From sequence record OR352947.1: DNA of 64,000 nt; one strand, written 5' to 3'. The notes under the pieces are model-generated. The model was not told the DNA's origin, did no database searches, and saw only the letters and a list, made by a program, of their open reading frames with translations. This document shows, in pieces, positions 6,309-32,341 of the stretch. Each line of letters begins with the position of its first letter. Within the stretch, counting starts at the first letter, position 1. Both the position numbers and the translations under genes were made by a program. Source of the DNA: Escherichia phage AV117.

Positions 6309-8522
6309 TTATTTGGCCGCTTCCACGGCCTTCATGAATTTAACGATTTGAGCGACCTGTTCTTTGGAAAGAGTACCACGTCGTCCCATGTATTCCGACA
6401 CAATATGATAATTGGTTTCGAATTCAATAACCATTTTATCATCATTATCGTAAGCATTATCTTTAAGCTTATCGAAAATTTTAGCACACAGTTCTAACTT
6501 CTTATTCAGATCTCTGTTAGTAGCACCTGAGAATCGATTCCATCCCCATCGATTATTTACTGTTGAAAGTTTTGCAAAATCTTTACTGATTTCTTTGTTC
6601 TTAGAGCTAAAATACTTACTAAGGAAGTTAAGCTCTTCATTACGAGTAATATGATTCAAATAAGGCTGTGCTCTACGACTTGGTGATACATACTCATCAT
6701 AATCTACTTTATCGATTAGCATAATATAGTCATTAATTGATTTTTCGAACAAGCATTCTACTTCACCAAGTTTACGAACTTTCTTAGCAATCTGTGGACG
6801 GACTACAGTGAACTCTTTAATACCTGACAAATCAGCAATACGGGTCAAGAAATTGGAGTCATAGTTCAACCAACCTTTATCTGCGTCAAGACATTCAGCA
6901 TTAGAACGATTACGAACTATAGCATAACCTTGGATTTCATCAGCTTCACTCGCCGGAATAAAGAGATCTTCTGATACCCAAACATCGTTTTCATTCTTAA
7001 AGAACCGATGAGCACTTGGGGATTTAGGACGAGGCCCATTAGAACGAGTCTTGACTTCAATCCATGGCTTAACGATTTGTAAAAGCTCTGAAGTCTTGTA
7101 CATGTTAATGTTGTCGCCATCAAAGATAACTTTAAGGCGTTCCAGAAGTTTCATTGCATCTTCGTCTGTAGGGTCAACGAATAGTACGCTTTTACCAAAA
7201 CCGCGTGGAACTTTACCTGTTAATTTAACCTCGTCTTTAGACATTTCAATTGAATTAAGAGCTCGCATTAATGGAACACGTCCCTTAACGTCGTCAATAA
7301 CAATTTCAACATTTTTAATGTTAATGCCAATCAGACTGTTAATTGAAATAGTTGACGATGAGCTACCACTTTCACGAATACGACGAAGACGAGGGTCTTC
7401 AATGATATCGTATACGACGCCTAGATTACACCATTCAGGTCCCATTTTAAAACGTTTGTACAACTCAGAATAAGTTAGTTGTTCTTTAGAATATTTCAGT
7501 GATTCAATATTAGAACCAGCTTTTTCCATGTATTTACGAGCTGTATAGCCAAGAGAATCGATTTCACGGAATACATGACGTGGATATTCACAATCAATCC
7601 ATTTCTTAGAATCTTCAGCAAATAATTTTGCATCGATTTCTGCAACACGTTTATGGATATTTGCTACTGTACGTTTATCAAATGACAATGCTTCACGAGA
7701 CGGGGCTACATCTAGTTCACCCATAGGGAATTTAATATAAGCTGTAGTGCATCGCGTCATCATCCATGTTTGTTCTTTAATAACACTTCCAATTGGATAT
7801 ACAATACCACCATAAACAGCCATGATATTACCACGTTCACCCCATGGAGCTTCCTTGGCCAAATATACATCATCGAATTCCGGGAAGTATTTGATATCTT
7901 TAACACCACGAACTTCTGCAATATCGCCGAGAGGACGCATAACATAAGCAATTTCGGATGCGAACTTTTCAAAATCTTCTGGGTTAACAGGCACAACTAC
8001 TTCAACGCCGGTCCGGTCATCAGGGCCCATCTTATCTACGAAGGTTGGCTTAATTTGTGGGCCTGTGTCATCTTGGTAGATTACGTAACCACGAACTTCA
8101 CCATTGTGATAAGACGTAAGGTTAAACGTATCAGTATATGCTAATGGAGCTTTAGAACCGAGTCCGAATCCACCGATGAAATCGTTACTCGATGTTTTAG
8201 TTGAAGCAAAATATGAGTTATAGATTCCTGGCTCTTCATCATTACCTCGAATGGTGAAATCACTCATACCAGGACCAAAGTCTCGAACTACAAAACGTGG
8301 GTCTAAACGACCTGGAGCCTGAACAATAAACTTATCAGTGCAACCATTAAGAATTTGTCCATCGATACAGTTTGTGATTAATTCACGTACACAAGCCAAT
8401 TCTTTGTTTGTATAAAGGTCATTAGACAAAATCTTATAAACTTTACTATTGCCTTGAATAGTAAATGCTGTGCTCTTACCGCCTGAACCAATAATTGTTT
8501 CTTTAGCCGTTTCAATAATCAT
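6309..8522 (-). CDS. rIIA: rIIA protein
   Basis: 737 aa; N-terminus MIIETAKETIIGSGGKS...LYTNK...RELITN.ID and long blocks (FIGGFGLGSK, GPQIKPTFV, APSREALS) match my recollection of T4 rIIA. Confidence 0.95.
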   Translation of the reverse strand: MIIETAKETIIGSGGKSTAFTIQGNSKVYKILSNDLYTNKELACVRELITNCIDGQILNGCTDKFIVQAPGRLDPRFVVRDFGPGMSDFTIRGNDEEPGIYNSYFASTKTSSNDFIGGFGLGSKAPLAYTDTFNLTSYHNGEVRGYVIYQDDTGPQIKPTFVDKMGPDDRTGVEVVVPVNPEDFEKFASEIAYVMRPLGDIAEVRGVKDIKYFPEFDDVYLAKEAPWGERGNIMAVYGGIVYPIGSVIKEQTWMMTRCTTAYIKFPMGELDVAPSREALSFDKRTVANIHKRVAEIDAKLFAEDSKKWIDCEYPRHVFREIDSLGYTARKYMEKAGSNIESLKYSKEQLTYSELYKRFKMGPEWCNLGVVYDIIEDPRLRRIRESGSSSSTISINSLIGINIKNVEIVIDDVKGRVPLMRALNSIEMSKDEVKLTGKVPRGFGKSVLFVDPTDEDAMKLLERLKVIFDGDNINMYKTSELLQIVKPWIEVKTRSNGPRPKSPSAHRFFKNENDVWVSEDLFIPASEADEIQGYAIVRNRSNAECLDADKGWLNYDSNFLTRIADLSGIKEFTVVRPQIAKKVRKLGEVECLFEKSINDYIMLIDKVDYDEYVSPSRRAQPYLNHITRNEELNFLSKYFSSKNKEISKDFAKLSTVNNRWGWNRFSGATNRDLNKKLELCAKIFDKLKDNAYDNDDKMVIEFETNYHIVSEYMGRRGTLSKEQVAQIVKFMKAVEAAK

Positions 8523-8827: not shown

Positions 8828-9928
8828 TTACGCTGCGAAGATTTTATCCCACATCGCAACAACTGCATCTCGATTATACTTCTTCCATACTGCTTCAGCA
8901 CGTTTAACTCGAGCTTCGTATGTGTCAGTGAATTCTAATACAGCTTTTGTGTAAAGCGCAACTACTTCTTTCTTAGGAGTAGAGGAATCAATTTCTACAC
9001 GCACAGTATCTGGGTCGTATTCGAATGTCGCATGAGGATAATCCTTAAAAACTAACTGGATTACAGGGACACCTTTAGAGATAGCTTCAATAGAACTATT
9101 CTCTACTGTACCCGTGTCAGGACACGTATTAATAAGTGCTTTAGCTGTTTTAAGACGTTCCATGATTTCACTGTGTGGAGCATCAATAATAACAGGATAT
9201 TTAGCTGGTGGTGCCCATTTGCTTGGACAGTATCCTGCGCCATTTTCGCCTAGTGCTTTAATCGCTTCAAGAGCAACATCAGTACGACGCATTTTAGTGT
9301 CATAACGTTGTGCACTAATAATCAGATCAGTCGCCGGAAGAACTTCAGGTTTCTCATTCAAACAAATAACCGGATAATCTTCGGCTTCAAACAACGGATT
9401 TGCTCGCCAATAATCATAATCAATTTTGTCAGTCAGACCTGAAGTCATATAACAATATTTGCGTTCAAATTCACGGAAGGCTTTAGTAGGAGCATAACTC
9501 TTACCACCATTCTTATGAATTTGAATAGTCTGGTCCCAAATTTGAACAATGCCACGAGATACCGGTTCAAATGGTGTTGCCATAAAATTCTTATGAACTT
9601 TAGAGAGACCTGCGTCTTTAATTGCCTGAACGGTTAGTTTAGTCGGTTCCATAGTAACAACAAAATCGTATTCATGGATGCCGGCTAGTTCAACAATCTT
9701 ACGAGCCATAGTATAACTCATACCTAGACTGAATTTAGTCAGATGACCAACAGGATGGTGTGTAACTTTCCAGTCACCAAACGTGTCATTGTCAAAGCCG
9801 ATATAATCAATATCAGCACCGATGGACACAAGATATTTCAACACATTTAAATGTACTGCTTCAAGACCACCTTGTACACGGTCAGGATTAAATGGGACTG
9901 CACGAGATGGGATAAACATAACTTTCAT
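8828..9928 (-). CDS. putative GT-B fold glycosyltransferase, candidate hmC-DNA glycosyl(arabinosyl)transferase
   Basis: 366 aa; C-terminal TGTVENSSIEAISKGVPVI resembles the E-x7-E donor-binding motif of GT-B enzymes; lies between rIIA.1 and gene 39 where T4 has gene 60; no T4 agt/bgt homolog seen in the window. Confidence 0.5.
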   Translation of the reverse strand: MKVMFIPSRAVPFNPDRVQGGLEAVHLNVLKYLVSIGADIDYIGFDNDTFGDWKVTHHPVGHLTKFSLGMSYTMARKIVELAGIHEYDFVVTMEPTKLTVQAIKDAGLSKVHKNFMATPFEPVSRGIVQIWDQTIQIHKNGGKSYAPTKAFREFERKYCYMTSGLTDKIDYDYWRANPLFEAEDYPVICLNEKPEVLPATDLIISAQRYDTKMRRTDVALEAIKALGENGAGYCPSKWAPPAKYPVIIDAPHSEIMERLKTAKALINTCPDTGTVENSSIEAISKGVPVIQLVFKDYPHATFEYDPDTVRVEIDSSTPKKEVVALYTKAVLEFTDTYEARVKRAEAVWKKYNRDAVVAMWDKIFAA

Positions 9929-9953: not shown

Positions 9954-9971
9954 GAAGCTCCCGAAGGAGCT
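9954..9971 (-). terminator. intrinsic terminator (UUCG tetraloop) after gene 39
   Basis: aagctcc-cgaa-ggagctt abutting the gene 39 stop; minus RNA followed by CAUUUUAAUUUUAAU. Confidence 0.6.
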
Positions 9972-11788
9972 TAGGACATCCATTCTTTACGAAGTTCTGA
10001 ATCATCACCCAACAACATTTCAAAGAGTTCTTTCCAATTTTCAGGAAGTTTAACTACGTCGTACACAGGGTTTTGAATCATTTCACGATATTCTGACTTT
10101 TCAAGTGAGCCCAATCCCTTGATGTATCGAATACTATGCTTAGGCAGTGTATCTTTAGCTTCTTCATACTCAGCTACAGTATAAAACCATTTTTGAGTTT
10201 TGCCAATTTGTGCAATAATTACAGGCGTTTTAACAAAGCGAATACGTCCTTGTTCAAACAATTCAGGCCAATTACTAAAGAAAGCAAGCAAAGCCGGATA
10301 AATACTTCCAAGACCGTCATGATCGGCATCGGTCATAATTGCAATATTACGATAGTTCGTATTCTCTGCCTTTTCACCAAGAATAAGACCTGTGATAGCA
10401 CAGATATCAAAGAGCTCTTTGTTCTTCATCATATCAGCATATGACATACCCCAGCTATTCATCACCTTACCACGTAATGGGAATCCACCGTGTAGTTCAC
10501 GGTCACGAACATCAATGAGATAACCAATTGCCGAATCACCTTCTGTTAAAAACAATGTCGTATCCGCATCTTTACCGCATTGGTTAGCTTTAATATGCTT
10601 ATGAACCTTAGCTTTAGTTGCCTTTTTAGCTGCTTTAGTTTCTGCAGCCTTTTCTGCTGCCAATTTACGAGCTAATGCTGCTTCAACAATAGGCATAATC
10701 AAGGCTTCGTTTTTAAGAAGTGCCTGAGCAATTTTCTTAGCATCTAATTGGATATGATTACGAATATCACCATACGTTGACGTTAAACGTTCTTTAGTCT
10801 GAGAATCAAAACGCATGTTGCTCATGTCTCTAATAAACATCAACATTGTGAGACATTCTTTAACACGAGCTTTAGTGACTTCAATACCCTTATATTTCTT
10901 TTTAATACCCGGCAAAAGATGTTCGCAGATATCATCCATTACACATTCAACATGATGACCACCATTTTTAGTATGGATGTTATTCACATAAGTTAAATGA
11001 CGGAAGCCGTCTGGTGATGTTGTGAATGCTATAGAGACTTTATCATTTTCTTGAATGATGTTATCTTCACCAAATTGTTTAGCAAATCGTTTAAAATTAC
11101 CATCAACCTTTTTACCATTAAATGTGAACTTGATATCAGGATAAACGACTGCCAATGTTTGAAGCCGGTCTAAAGTAATATCTAAATAAATTTGAGATAA
11201 ATTATGTTCTTCAAATGAAGAGAAATCAGGAGTGAAGATTACTTTAGTGCCTTTACCTTTAGATTTCTTAGAAGACCATGATTTGTTTTCCATCCCGTTT
11301 GAACAGTTAACAGTGATTTCATTTTCGCCATCTGACGTTATGCCTGTAAACAACGTAGAGAAGATATTAGTTAAACTACTCCCGACGCCGTTCATACCAC
11401 CGGTCTTACGTTCAGAGTCATCGCCAAAGTTACCACCAGCCTTTGGAATAGTCCAGGCTGCTACAGGCCCAGGAATTTGTTCACCTGTTTGGTCGGTAAC
11501 TAAACCTTGAGGAATACCACGTCCGTTATCTTCCACCGAAACTTGATTATTTTTAATTTGCACATCAATTTTATTTGCAAACTTAAATGATGTACGAATA
11601 GCTTCATCAACCGAGTTGTCAATAATCTCATCGATTAATTTAACCAGACCAGGAACATATTCAACTTGTTGATATTTACCAAACAAAAAACGTTCGTGGG
11701 CTTCTTTGGCCGAAGAACCAATATACATGCCACTTCGTTTCTTAATATGTTCTACATCTGACAATACCTTAATTTCATTTTTAATCAT
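9971..11788 (-). CDS. 39: DNA topoisomerase II large subunit (GyrB-like), fused gp39+gp60 form
   Basis: 605 aa; GHKL ATPase motifs (DNGRGIP, GGxxGxG-like) and TOPRIM; length equals the fused 39+60 subunit of non-T4 T-evens. Confidence 0.93.
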   Translation of the reverse strand: MIKNEIKVLSDVEHIKKRSGMYIGSSAKEAHERFLFGKYQQVEYVPGLVKLIDEIIDNSVDEAIRTSFKFANKIDVQIKNNQVSVEDNGRGIPQGLVTDQTGEQIPGPVAAWTIPKAGGNFGDDSERKTGGMNGVGSSLTNIFSTLFTGITSDGENEITVNCSNGMENKSWSSKKSKGKGTKVIFTPDFSSFEEHNLSQIYLDITLDRLQTLAVVYPDIKFTFNGKKVDGNFKRFAKQFGEDNIIQENDKVSIAFTTSPDGFRHLTYVNNIHTKNGGHHVECVMDDICEHLLPGIKKKYKGIEVTKARVKECLTMLMFIRDMSNMRFDSQTKERLTSTYGDIRNHIQLDAKKIAQALLKNEALIMPIVEAALARKLAAEKAAETKAAKKATKAKVHKHIKANQCGKDADTTLFLTEGDSAIGYLIDVRDRELHGGFPLRGKVMNSWGMSYADMMKNKELFDICAITGLILGEKAENTNYRNIAIMTDADHDGLGSIYPALLAFFSNWPELFEQGRIRFVKTPVIIAQIGKTQKWFYTVAEYEEAKDTLPKHSIRYIKGLGSLEKSEYREMIQNPVYDVVKLPENWKELFEMLLGDDSELRKEWMS

Positions 11789-30076: not shown

Positions 30077-30175
30077 TGTATTTTTCCATAGGCATCATTA
30101 TATTTTACTCATGTTTAAAAGATAAGACGATTATATACTAACGGTTATACAGCATTTAAAACTTTAAACAGGCTC

Positions 30176-30724
30176 TTAACGAGCCCATTTGATAATTTCT
30201 GTAATCAAATTATTACGTTCGCTTGCATTAAATCCTATAACTTTGTTAGCACCATCATGATTAAGTAATTGATACGTTTGGATTTTGTTATGAATTGCAA
30301 ACTCTTCAAAATATGAAATGACTGTATTAAAACCGAATGAAGACAAAGTAATAAGGTCGTCTTCAAAACTTTCAGTCATTTCGTTACGTGTTAAAATAAT
30401 TGTGAACACATCATGGTTTTGGCAAAGACGAACATAATCCTGTTCATAAACGTCAAGAACCGAGTCCACATCTTGTCGAATACGTCCATAAACCCAGTTA
30501 CTAATATATCCACGGTCTAACAGATAAATCTTAGTAGGGTCTAAATAATTCAACATCGTTTCGAAACAGCCAACTTCATTTCGAGACTTAACATCGAAAC
30601 GTCCATCAACTGTTCGTTTAGGGAAATCAATCTTTACATATCTTTCACTAATTTCCATTATGTCATTAATGAAAGTTGTTTTACCAGCATTATCCGGGCC
30701 ATCTACTAAAATAATTTTAGCCAT
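30176..30724 (-). CDS. thymidylate-kinase-like P-loop nucleotide kinase
   Basis: 182 aa; P-loop ILVDGPDNAGKTT (compare Tmk GxEGxGKTT) and LLDRGY (Tmk DRY-like motif). Confidence 0.55.
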   Translation of the reverse strand: MAKIILVDGPDNAGKTTFINDIMEISERYVKIDFPKRTVDGRFDVKSRNEVGCFETMLNYLDPTKIYLLDRGYISNWVYGRIRQDVDSVLDVYEQDYVRLCQNHDVFTIILTRNEMTESFEDDLITLSSFGFNTVISYFEEFAIHNKIQTYQLLNHDGANKVIGFNASERNNLITEIIKWAR

Positions 30725-30725
30725 T

Positions 30726-31625
30726 TTATTCCTCGATTACGACATCTTCATATTTAGGTATATTATACGGCGAAGAAATTAAAGCATTAAAGTAGATGAA
30801 CTCGCCAAGACCTGGATGGAATACTTCTTCAGGATTTTCGAAGTATTGAATCTTCGGACGTCCTTTAAGAATTTGATAGTACTCAGTTTTAGTTGGTTTA
30901 AAAATTCGAATCAGCGCTTCTTCAGGATACTTATTTCTGTCGAAGCTATTATTTGGATCGGTTATATAAAGCGGTTGACCTAATTGAATTGCACATTCAA
31001 CCACTTGTTCAAAACGATAGCACGGGTCACTAATTCGAAATGGATGAAAAATACCATCTAGATGAATAGGAGCCAAATCACCTACAAGACGCTGCATGAT
31101 GGAAGGACGTATAACTTTCTGCGTTACGATAATCTTATTACCATCTGCACCTGCGTTAACCAGCACTTCTTTTTGACGTTCATTCAACACAGTAGTTTGA
31201 AGTGAACGATTAACAGACAACATGTCGGTTTTTAAGAATTCGTCAATATAAAAACGTGGTTTATTAGGGTCTGCAGTGATATTGAAATTGAATTCTACGT
31301 CAAAAGTGCCGTCATATCCAGTGATATCTGTGATTAGAAAATCACAATCATAATAATCAATTAATGAATCAACCACAAATTCATTTTCAGACCAGAAATA
31401 TTTACGAGTGTTATATGCGTTATCTTTATACCATAATGGAACAAACTTAAATTCTGGGAAAAGTCGTTCACATTCTTTAATATCAGATGCATTACGTGGA
31501 TATGTAATCACATCACCCGGATTAGCACGGTGCAAATGAAGTTGGAAGTTGCCATCCTTAAGGATAGCATACTGTCCAGTTTCATAAGACCGCATACTCA
31601 AGATAGGTACGCGGAAAATAGCCAT
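30726..31625 (-). CDS. hypothetical enzyme (299 aa) in the T4 beta-gt map position
   Basis: no recognisable motif; 1-nt gap to downstream kinase and shared stop/start with the hydroxymethylase. Confidence 0.5.
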   Translation of the reverse strand: MAIFRVPILSMRSYETGQYAILKDGNFQLHLHRANPGDVITYPRNASDIKECERLFPEFKFVPLWYKDNAYNTRKYFWSENEFVVDSLIDYYDCDFLITDITGYDGTFDVEFNFNITADPNKPRFYIDEFLKTDMLSVNRSLQTTVLNERQKEVLVNAGADGNKIIVTQKVIRPSIMQRLVGDLAPIHLDGIFHPFRISDPCYRFEQVVECAIQLGQPLYITDPNNSFDRNKYPEEALIRIFKPTKTEYYQILKGRPKIQYFENPEEVFHPGLGEFIYFNALISSPYNIPKYEDVVIEE

Positions 31626-32341
31626 TAGTCAAGGAATCCTTTAACATAATCAAAATCACGTTCAAACACATGGGCACTTACCATGGTATGAGTATAATCA
31701 CCAACTTCTACACCACATTCTTTAGCGATATAATGAAGTAATTTTCCTTGGAGATAAAAATCCAACTGCATAACAACAGCACAGTTCTGAGAACGCATAT
31801 GGCAGTGGGTATAAAGCTTACCATCACGAATATAATAAGTCACTGAGTCAGTACATGGATATTCAAGTGTTTCGTCCGAATCAAGCAAAGCCTGATCTGA
31901 ACTTTCAAGAATTTGAAACACAACTCTTCGAGAGTTAGGTTTTTCTTTAAGTTCTTTTAGAAGAGTTGGTAACTGGGCCGCAATGCGAGGACCGTAGAAA
32001 GTGTTGAAGTTTGCAGGCAAAGCATCTGATTTCGGTTTAGAAATAAATTTAGCGACGTTAGGATATGCCTTAAATGCTTCTTCTGCATCAGTACCACCAG
32101 AAATCATAAATTTCCAGAAATCTTCAGCATATTCATAAGAGATGCGATTAATACGTGGGTCGGTCATTTTGAATGATGAAGGGGTATCAACAACTACTGT
32201 CATAGACCCAATTTCATTACAACGTCCAATACGAGAATCAGTAACGAACTGTGGATTTTCTAAAATTTCACGATTGACAGCTTTAAATGCGGATTGAAAA
32301 TCTTCGGCTTTAATATATTTCATTGTGTTATGTTTTCCCAT
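31625..32341 (-). CDS. 42: deoxycytidylate 5-hydroxymethyltransferase (gp42-type, thymidylate-synthase fold)
   Basis: 238 aa; PNSRRVVFQIL, YPCTDSVTYYIRDGKL (catalytic Cys), MRSQNCAVVMQLDF align by eye with the T4 gp42 blocks I recall; an Asp appears at the base-specificity position. Confidence 0.78.
   Translation of the reverse strand: MGKHNTMKYIKAEDFQSAFKAVNREILENPQFVTDSRIGRCNEIGSMTVVVDTPSSFKMTDPRINRISYEYAEDFWKFMISGGTDAEEAFKAYPNVAKFISKPKSDALPANFNTFYGPRIAAQLPTLLKELKEKPNSRRVVFQILESSDQALLDSDETLEYPCTDSVTYYIRDGKLYTHCHMRSQNCAVVMQLDFYLQGKLLHYIAKECGVEVGDYTHTMVSAHVFERDFDYVKGFLD

Follow-up and report, generated by a model that had tools for sequence, protein, structure and literature searches.

Background

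RB69 DNA carries arabosylated 5-hydroxycytosine, an end product in which the sugar is ether-linked directly to the base, without phosphate, and RB69 gp48 was shown experimentally to synthesise 5-hydroxy-dCMP in a reaction that depends on flavin and O2 (Lee et al., NAR 2026, PMC13326640); the older assignment of arabinosyl-hmC to Mosigvirus DNA is now considered an error (PMC13390438). The substitution D169N has been proposed as a diagnostic signature of the synthase, and N177D predicts dCMP specificity, according to the ThyA literature cited in the same study (PMC13326640). RB69 gp159, the homolog of gene 1, converts 5hodCMP to 5hodCDP in vitro, and gp159 together with gp48 is enough for 5hodC to appear in the DNA of E. 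coli (PMC13326640). Single glycosyltransferases (GTs) supplied with UDP-Ara did not arabosylate 5hoC-DNA, and Lee et al. left undecided whether the first sugar is added at the level of the mononucleotide or of DNA; later arabinoses are added at the DNA level (PMC13326640). The protein gp46:47 was named arabinosyltransferase 1 on fold evidence, the roles of the HAD phosphatase gp51 and of the nucleotidyltransferase/kinase gp52:53 were described, and gp50 was labelled “sugar or heterocycle reductase”, with U32 never mentioned (PMC13326640).

Synthase, sugar-nucleotide enzymes and later arabinosyltransferases of the arabinosyl-5-hydroxycytosine pathway are already characterised. The kinase gene which is the subject of this study, and its Tmk-like nature, are likewise known from the literature: RB69p045, DLP3 gp78 and RL38J1 gp214 were listed as “nucleotide kinase” in 5hoC clusters, a label based on fold (PMC13326640), a listing of 2021 placed RB69p045 “presumably” in the pathway (PMC8056088), and the RefSeq label of RB69p045 is “thymidylate kinase”. 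In the literature searched, neither a demonstrated role for the kinase or for the first sugar transfer nor a measurement of kinase activity was found, He et al. 2026 (phage HY126) lying outside that scope. Added here are the conservation of the module beyond the T4-like phages, the separation of the kinase from 5-HMUDK and from the gene 1 family, the cases of Morganella phage MP1 and contig L020, and a set of glycosylase fusions.

Gene cluster and reading frame

The window, a stretch of 64,000 nucleotides from Escherichia phage AV117 (OR352947.1), is in this region 99.4% identical to Escherichia phage F2, 98.9% to HY126 and 98.7% to SA79RD; SA79RD and RB69 are both classified as Mosigvirus, and the window is likewise assigned to Mosigvirus on these sequence identities. 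The order of the genes on the minus strand is DNA polymerase, isomerase, nucleotidyltransferase/kinase, HAD phosphatase, U32 protein, ThyA homolog, GT, kinase and uvsX (Table 1). Translational coupling links synthase, GT and kinase in this sequence. T4-like loci hardly vary in the order synthase-GT-kinase-uvsX; a Dhakavirus-like locus has the kinase at another place inside the same cluster.

Table 1. Positions of the features discussed, in the window unless another record is named
Feature	Position	Strand	Basis or remarks
Tmk-fold P-loop kinase, 182 aa	30176-30724	minus	ATG start; ortholog of RB69p045 / DLP3 gp78
P-loop GPDNAGKTT, residues 9-17	30674-30700	minus	translation; aligns to TMPK P-loop
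LLDRGY, residues 68-73, DR(Y)-like motif	30506-30523	minus	translation; aligns to yeast TMPK “MDRYVYS”
Short hairpin GGCTC-gttaa-GAGCC with T-rich tail	30158-30185	minus	overlaps kinase stop codon
GT-B glycosyltransferase, 299 aa	30726-31625	minus	RB69 gp46:47, proposed first arabinosyltransferase; PHROG 3891 at 4e-156
ThyA homolog, 238 aa, 5-hydroxy-dCMP synthase	31625-32341	minus	near-identical to PDB 9iqc, E 8e-161 to PDB 9iqc/9ir2; D169N + N177D
Peptidase_U32-family protein, 386 aa	32580-33740	minus	RB69 gp50; Pfam PF01136 at 6.3e-11, NCBIfam UbiU at 4.8e-4
HAD-type phosphatase, 133 aa	33801-34202	minus	RB69 gp51 / HY126 AfhF-like; TIGR01689 4e-13; 100% identical to HY126 ORF
Bifunctional sugar-1-P nucleotidyltransferase/kinase, 561 aa	34187-35872	minus	RB69 gp52:53 / AfhE-like; 97% identical to HY126 ORF
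Arabinose-5-phosphate isomerase, 211 aa	36054-36689	minus	RB69 gp55; 99% identical to HY126 ORF annotated D-arabinose-5-phosphate isomerase
366-aa ORF	8828-9928	minus	between rIIA and topoisomerase large subunit
rIIA	6309-8522		
Topoisomerase large subunit	9971-11788		
Kinase + MBD4-like HhH-GPD fusions	L023 10001-11074; L027 6205-7173; L029 1446-2390; L024 127-1092		metagenomic phage contigs
Radical SAM/SPASM enzyme	L027 8385-9377; L048 2752-3681		after synthase-kinase-GT4 set
MP1 td ortholog	NC_031020 142020-142859; L034 42020-42859		
RL38J1 gp214	L030 7748-8383		“nucleotide kinase” at equivalent position

The kinase reading frame is a genuine gene and not a chance reading frame, because it is matched by tblastn in 343 of 50,697 phage records, has homologs in 27 clusters in a search of 5.8 billion proteins (best E 3e-115), shows 37 invariant columns in an alignment of 22 sequences, is tightly spaced, with its ATG 1 nt past the stop codon of the upstream gene, and ends in a hairpin at its stop codon. 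It is identical to RB69p045 (NP_861735.1) at 178 of 182 positions (98%). The site corresponding to the hairpin carries a rho-independent terminator annotation in phage SA79RD, and transcription of the synthase-GT-kinase unit likely ends there. A simple consensus scan called no terminator, this hairpin included; a simple scan for promoter-like sites yielded 12, as compared to about 12 expected from shuffled sequence, and PADLOC returned nothing meaningful.

The 366-aa ORF between rIIA and the gene of the topoisomerase large subunit is, by its position only, the probable second arabinosyltransferase (RB69 gp3 / Aat-like), the second Mosigvirus enzyme having been reported to lie there; the GT1 profile does not match it. 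The Peptidase_U32 family includes the O2-independent hydroxylases RlhA, which forms 5-hydroxy-C in 23S rRNA, TrhP, which is responsible for prephenate-dependent formation of 5-hydroxy-U in tRNA, and UbiU/V, and the U32 protein of the window may provide an oxygen-independent route to 5-hydroxycytosine. The U32 gene is present in the clusters of phages of facultative anaerobes and absent from those of Acinetobacter phages (L015-L017, Ac42). In phage Rgz1, a gene for a “chorismate mutase” is located between the U32 gene and the synthase gene.

Motifs and fold of the kinase

The P-loop GPDNAGKTT and the LLDRGY motif, on which the original prediction had drawn, are both present in the translation. 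Among 22 kinase homologs, residues G9, D11, N12, G14, K15 and T16 of the P-loop are invariant, and D70 and R71 are invariant throughout the family, remote and fused members included; in the window kinase the Asp-Arg pair is followed by Gly, with Tyr one position further on (the Tmk consensus being GxxxxGK[ST] and DR[YHF]). In a PDB profile search, FPKR of the kinase aligned to FP(Q/E)R of vaccinia and yeast TMPK, and LDRGYISN to “MDRYVYS”; the FPKR motif is lost in the remotest members. With the residues of catalytic type, namely the P-loop Lys and Thr, the Asp-Arg pair and an Arg of the LID region, invariant in the 22 sequences, we regard the protein as a catalytically intact, very divergent nucleotide kinase of the Tmk fold, its activity being a prediction from these residues.

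The three-dimensional fold is that of Tmk, with bona fide TMPKs as its best matches. When the PDB was searched with the kinase, both as a single sequence and as a profile, only P-loop-level or marginal TMPK matches resulted, and the PDB contains no solved structure for the kinase or the adjacent GT. PHROG 761 (“thymidylate kinase”) matches at 7e-45. In contrast, the curated models were clearly missed, with 12.3 bits against a cut-off of 27 for Pfam Thymidylate_kin (PF02223), which matched residues 7-26 alone, and 16.8 bits against a cut-off of 83.25 for TIGR00041. Membership of the curated Tmk families by sequence was therefore rejected, so the Tmk-family resemblance originally claimed is upheld for the fold but not at the level of these models, and the inference of a substrate from TMPK motifs is weak. 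Membership of the T4 gene 1 dNMP kinase family was rejected as well, as neither the sequence nor the closest fold matches showed the corresponding similarity to gp1 (1dek). In TMPK structures, the P-loop Asp and the Arg of the DR motif make contact with the dNMP at its 3'-OH and its 5'-phosphate; both residues are retained here, which fits a free mononucleotide as substrate.

The modified base and the second candidate kinase

In the ThyA homolog of the window, the residues corresponding to D169 and N177 of E. coli ThyA are Asn and Asp, respectively. The kinase gene had been described in the original prediction as lying next to a hydroxymethylase gene; instead, the gene for the 299-aa GT intervenes, and the ThyA homolog is a 5-hydroxy-dCMP synthase. 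The accompanying expectation that gene 1 lies elsewhere, the kinase being an extra one, was borne out: the 64,000-nt window contains no gene 1 homolog, and gene 1 occurs in 1467 T4-like records, which include 606 Escherichia records and those of the close relatives SF and CCU7. Because gene 1 is common in T4-like relatives, and because gp159 acts on 5hodCMP, the phage has two candidate kinases, the one in the window and gene 1 outside it. Since gp159 and gp48 are sufficient for the appearance of 5hodC in DNA, the window kinase is not strictly required for the step from 5hodCMP to 5hodCDP.

Distribution and remote relatives

The synthase occurs in 373 phage records, as compared to 343 for the kinase, the excess including Rhizobium and Agrobacterium phages outside the reach of the kinase query. 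By genus, kinase and synthase records number 176/176 for Escherichia, 57/57 for Acinetobacter, 15/15 for Shigella, 25/26 for Klebsiella, 9/9 each for Enterobacter and Serratia, 7/7 for Proteus and 6/6 for Yersinia. Roughly 430 more Escherichia T4-like records contain gene 1 and lack a kinase of the window type, and the record counts imply that the T4-type hmC phages do not possess it. A profile of the kinase gave 302 matches among 1.84 billion representative proteins, 45 of them below 1e-10; the family is small and phage-restricted.

Gene contexts were examined for twelve remote matches. The kinase gene lies beside genes for a D169N/N177D ThyA homolog and a GT in L027/28, L036/37, L038, L045, L046, L047 and L048, whereas in L023 and in L029, a short contig, only the former is seen beside it; wherever a remote context contained a ThyA homolog, the one beside the kinase was of the D169N/N177D type, except in L020. 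In the short contigs L024, L040 and L041, the kinase gene is next to a GT-sized gene only, with evident homology to GT1 in L040 (E 7e-97), weak homology in L024 (8e-6) and none detected in L041. The adjacent GT is homologous to that of the window in most remote loci (E 1e-34 to 1e-103; RL38J1 gp215, 3e-17): such homologs lie beside the kinase in L036, L038, L040 and L045-L047, and beside its positional counterpart in RL38J1. The adjacent transferase of L027 and L048 is an unrelated GT4-type enzyme, some other loci having members of the GT1 family. As judged from this recurring adjacency in distant loci, synthase, kinase and transferase behave like a module that is portable between unrelated viruses, PolA-type phages included. 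The most conserved neighbour of the kinase is the GT, and the role of the kinase could be tied to the first sugar transfer.

In the two non-T4 loci of the 5hoC type with a GT4 enzyme, L027 and L048, the set of synthase, kinase and GT4 genes is followed by a gene for a radical SAM/SPASM enzyme, which suggests a further, undescribed elaboration of glycosyl-5-hydroxycytosine. The “nucleotide kinase” gp214 of Rhizobium phage RL38J1 has GKD in place of GK[ST] and Pro-Arg in place of Asp-Arg; due to weak similarity (probability 43%) and degenerate motifs it was rejected as a member of the kinase family and is a positional analogue only. It may be inactive or work by a different mechanism; another gene of RL38J1, gp219, codes for a dNMP kinase.

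Loci without the sugar genes

At the locus where its close relative Rgz1 has the full cluster, Morganella phage MP1 has two small ORFs and the kinase gene between the polymerase gene and uvsX. No synthase, GT, U32, phosphatase, nucleotidyltransferase or isomerase gene turned up when the complete 163-kb genome of MP1 was scanned, so that the arabinosylation cluster has been lost as a whole. Besides DenB and gene 1, MP1 retains a dCTPase with 94% identity to its Rgz1 counterpart, and the kinase with the conserved motifs of the family. Its td ortholog has Asp at the position of ThyA N177, together with C168A, while the td of Rgz1, 71% identical to it, keeps Asn at N177; MP1 may make 5-methyl- or 5-hydroxymethyl-dC with a td predicted to have been repurposed. 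The argument draws on one genome record and a predicted change of specificity of td. In contig L020, the kinase homolog is accompanied by a MazG-type pyrophosphatase (MazG-like dCTPase), a ThyA homolog of the hmC type (D169, N177D) and a dCMP deaminase, and no recognised transferase was found among the ORFs neighbouring it. In both MP1 and L020 the kinase is thus linked to the provision of a dCMP modified at C5 and not to glycosylation. The two types of GT found beside the kinase argue for a role that is independent of sugar and transferase type.

Kinase-glycosylase fusions

Eight remote members of the family (314-357 aa) carry a C-terminal domain which, in an AlphaFold model (pLDDT 82), superposes on MBD4 glycosylase domains with 27-28% identity and a target TM of 0.75-0.81. 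The Asp of an “EPxDKEL” motif, kept in 7 of the 8 fusions, may correspond to the catalytic Asp of MBD4. The fusions are situated in loci with a ThyA homolog of the D169N/N177D type, and among cultured phages their kinase domain matches the T4-like gp45 group only. An interpretation of the fusions as the arrangement of 5-HMUDK and amino-acid:DNA-transferase was rejected, as the C-terminal domain matches MBD4-type glycosylases and not PF18724. We interpret the fusions as an association at the level of the pathway, perhaps the repair of deaminated or unmodified pyrimidines. They are also compatible with a kinase acting on DNA, but are no evidence for such action. Contig L023 additionally has nearby genes for an FMN reductase, an SIS isomerase and a large nucleotidyltransferase-like protein.

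Proposed function and alternatives

The explanation which best accommodates the observed reading frame, fold, conserved motifs, co-occurrence and synteny is that the gene, the ortholog of RB69 gp45, codes on balance probably for the module's own 5-hydroxy-dCMP kinase, partly redundant with gene 1, both kinase activity and substrate being predictions. The module would comprise three genes, for the 5-hydroxy-dCMP synthase (the D169N/N177D ThyA homolog), the first DNA-base GT and the kinase. The latter would catalyze the ATP-dependent conversion of 5-hydroxy-dCMP to 5-hydroxy-dCDP and so pass the modified base on towards the triphosphate used in replication; it would make the module self-sufficient in any recipient phage and overlap with gene 1 in T4-like hosts. 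The dedicated hm-dCMP kinase of the original prediction would accordingly survive in part, as a probably dedicated kinase for a modified dCMP, the base being 5-hydroxycytosine and not hmC.

We consider it unlikely, though worth setting out, that the GT arabosylates 5hodCMP before replication and that the kinase alone phosphorylates the resulting arabinosyl-5hodCMP, DNA then being built from a glycosylated dNTP. The order of synthase, GT and kinase and their translational coupling match such a sequence of reactions; the adjacency of kinase and GT is the most conserved feature of the distant loci and spans two unrelated GT families; and a second kinase beside gene 1 would be explained, as gene 1 or host kinases would be unable to take the bulky product. 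However, MP1 has the kinase without GT or UDP-arabinose genes, and the homolog of L020 belongs to a nucleotide cluster of the hmC type in which none of the ORFs near it is a recognised GT. To our knowledge, the well-studied phage base glycosylations all act on DNA. The failure of single GTs to arabosylate 5hoC-DNA, with the level of the first sugar left undecided, is in line with glycosylation of the mononucleotide, whereas the addition of the later arabinoses at the DNA level is not (PMC13326640).

There is also a small chance that the gene codes for a thymidylate (dTMP/dUMP) kinase of the ordinary kind, an auxiliary enzyme which raises the supply of dTTP without being specifically linked to the modified cytosine. 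This would agree with the bona fide TMPKs as best fold matches, with the labels in RefSeq and PHROG, and with the retention of the kinase in MP1, which lacks the 5hoC cluster. In T4-type phages, however, dTMP is already served by gene 1 (T4 gp1). The number of kinase records tracks that of the synthase genus by genus, with the roughly 430 Escherichia gene 1 records devoid of the kinase, remote homologs lie beside D169N synthases in unrelated viruses, and the curated Tmk thresholds are missed widely, all of which argues against a general role in dTTP supply.

It is very unlikely that the protein is a non-catalytic or regulatory partner of the first GT, for instance a nucleotide-binding subunit. 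The very tight adjacency of kinase and GT, and the degenerate P-loop and Pro-Arg pair of RL38J1 gp214 at the equivalent position, would be compatible with such a function. On the other hand, P-loop Lys/Thr, DR and LID Arg are all invariant in the family of the window kinase, and MP1 has the kinase without the GT.

Still less probable is a kinase acting at the DNA level on the 5-hydroxyl of 5hoC, in the manner of the kinases that act on 5-hmdU in DNA during thymidine hypermodification; this corresponds to the original suggestion of a kinase for a base hydroxyl in DNA. The protein belongs to the same broad class of P-loop kinases, some remote members are fused to the MBD4-type HhH-GPD domain, which binds flipped pyrimidines in DNA, and the first glycosylation on DNA was not reconstituted (PMC13326640). 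The suggestion was not sustained by the family comparison: the kinase has no PF18748 match at E values up to 1, as compared to 7.7e-18 for the positive control M6 gp54, and hhalign aligned it to M6 gp54 with a probability of 80% over 83 columns in the N-terminal P-loop half only. The P-loop Asp and the DR pair, typical of mononucleotide kinases, are invariant, whereas M6 gp54 aligns FE at this position (FEG versus DRG), and the fused domain is glycosylase-like, with the putative catalytic Asp, and not the amino-acid:DNA transferase PF18724. Moreover, the final product contains an ether-linked sugar and no phosphate (PMC13326640), and a phosphorylated oxygen of phenol type would offer no obvious path to it.

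A dedicated hm-dCMP kinase is hardly credible, even though the kinases of L020 and MP1 accompany ThyA homologs with a signature of the hmC/mC type, since the island's only ThyA homolog in the window is a 5-hydroxy-dCMP synthase, Mosigvirus DNA contains arabinosyl-5-hydroxy-C, the hmC assignment being erroneous (PMC13326640, PMC13390438), and the record counts imply absence of the kinase from T4-type hmC phages.

Knowledge of the kinase substrate would complete the minimal gene set for writing glycosyl-5-hydroxycytosine into DNA, a set useful for the engineering of restriction- and CRISPR-resistant phage or DNA. It would also show whether gene 1 and the kinase are redundant or divide the work, and settle whether the first sugar is attached before or after replication. 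A protein that is simply a 5hodCMP kinase would be an ordinary, expected component of the pathway.

Comparison with known systems

RB69 gp45 (RB69p045) and DLP3 gp78 represent the same gene in another Mosigvirus isolate, with nothing material differing; RB69p045 occupies the same place between uvsX and the first GT gene and has the same Tmk-like fold matches (PMC13326640 Table 1). From Tmk (PF02223, TIGR00041) the window kinase differs in an identity of <=15%, in DRG-Y as opposed to DR[YHF], in an Asn of the P-loop at the site of the catalytic Arg of class I TMPK, and in its genomic partner, which is a dCMP-modifying enzyme, unlike the dTMP synthesis with which Tmk is associated. The 5-HMUDK enzymes (PF18748, M6 gp54) are likewise small P-loop kinases of phages, with genes next to those for a base-modifying enzyme of the ThyA family and for a group transferase; however, the similarity does not extend beyond the N-terminal half with the P-loop, the DR pair of the window kinase is absent from M6 gp54, and the chemistry of 5-HMUDK, with phosphate as the leaving group at a benzylic carbon, is without counterpart for a ring hydroxyl (PMC8989533). 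With the T4 gene 1 dNMP kinase (PDB 1dek) and RB69 gp159, the window kinase probably shares an overlapping function, the phosphorylation of the phage's modified dCMP, and the module of synthase, GT and kinase would resemble the T4 set of gp42, gp1 and glucosyltransferase.
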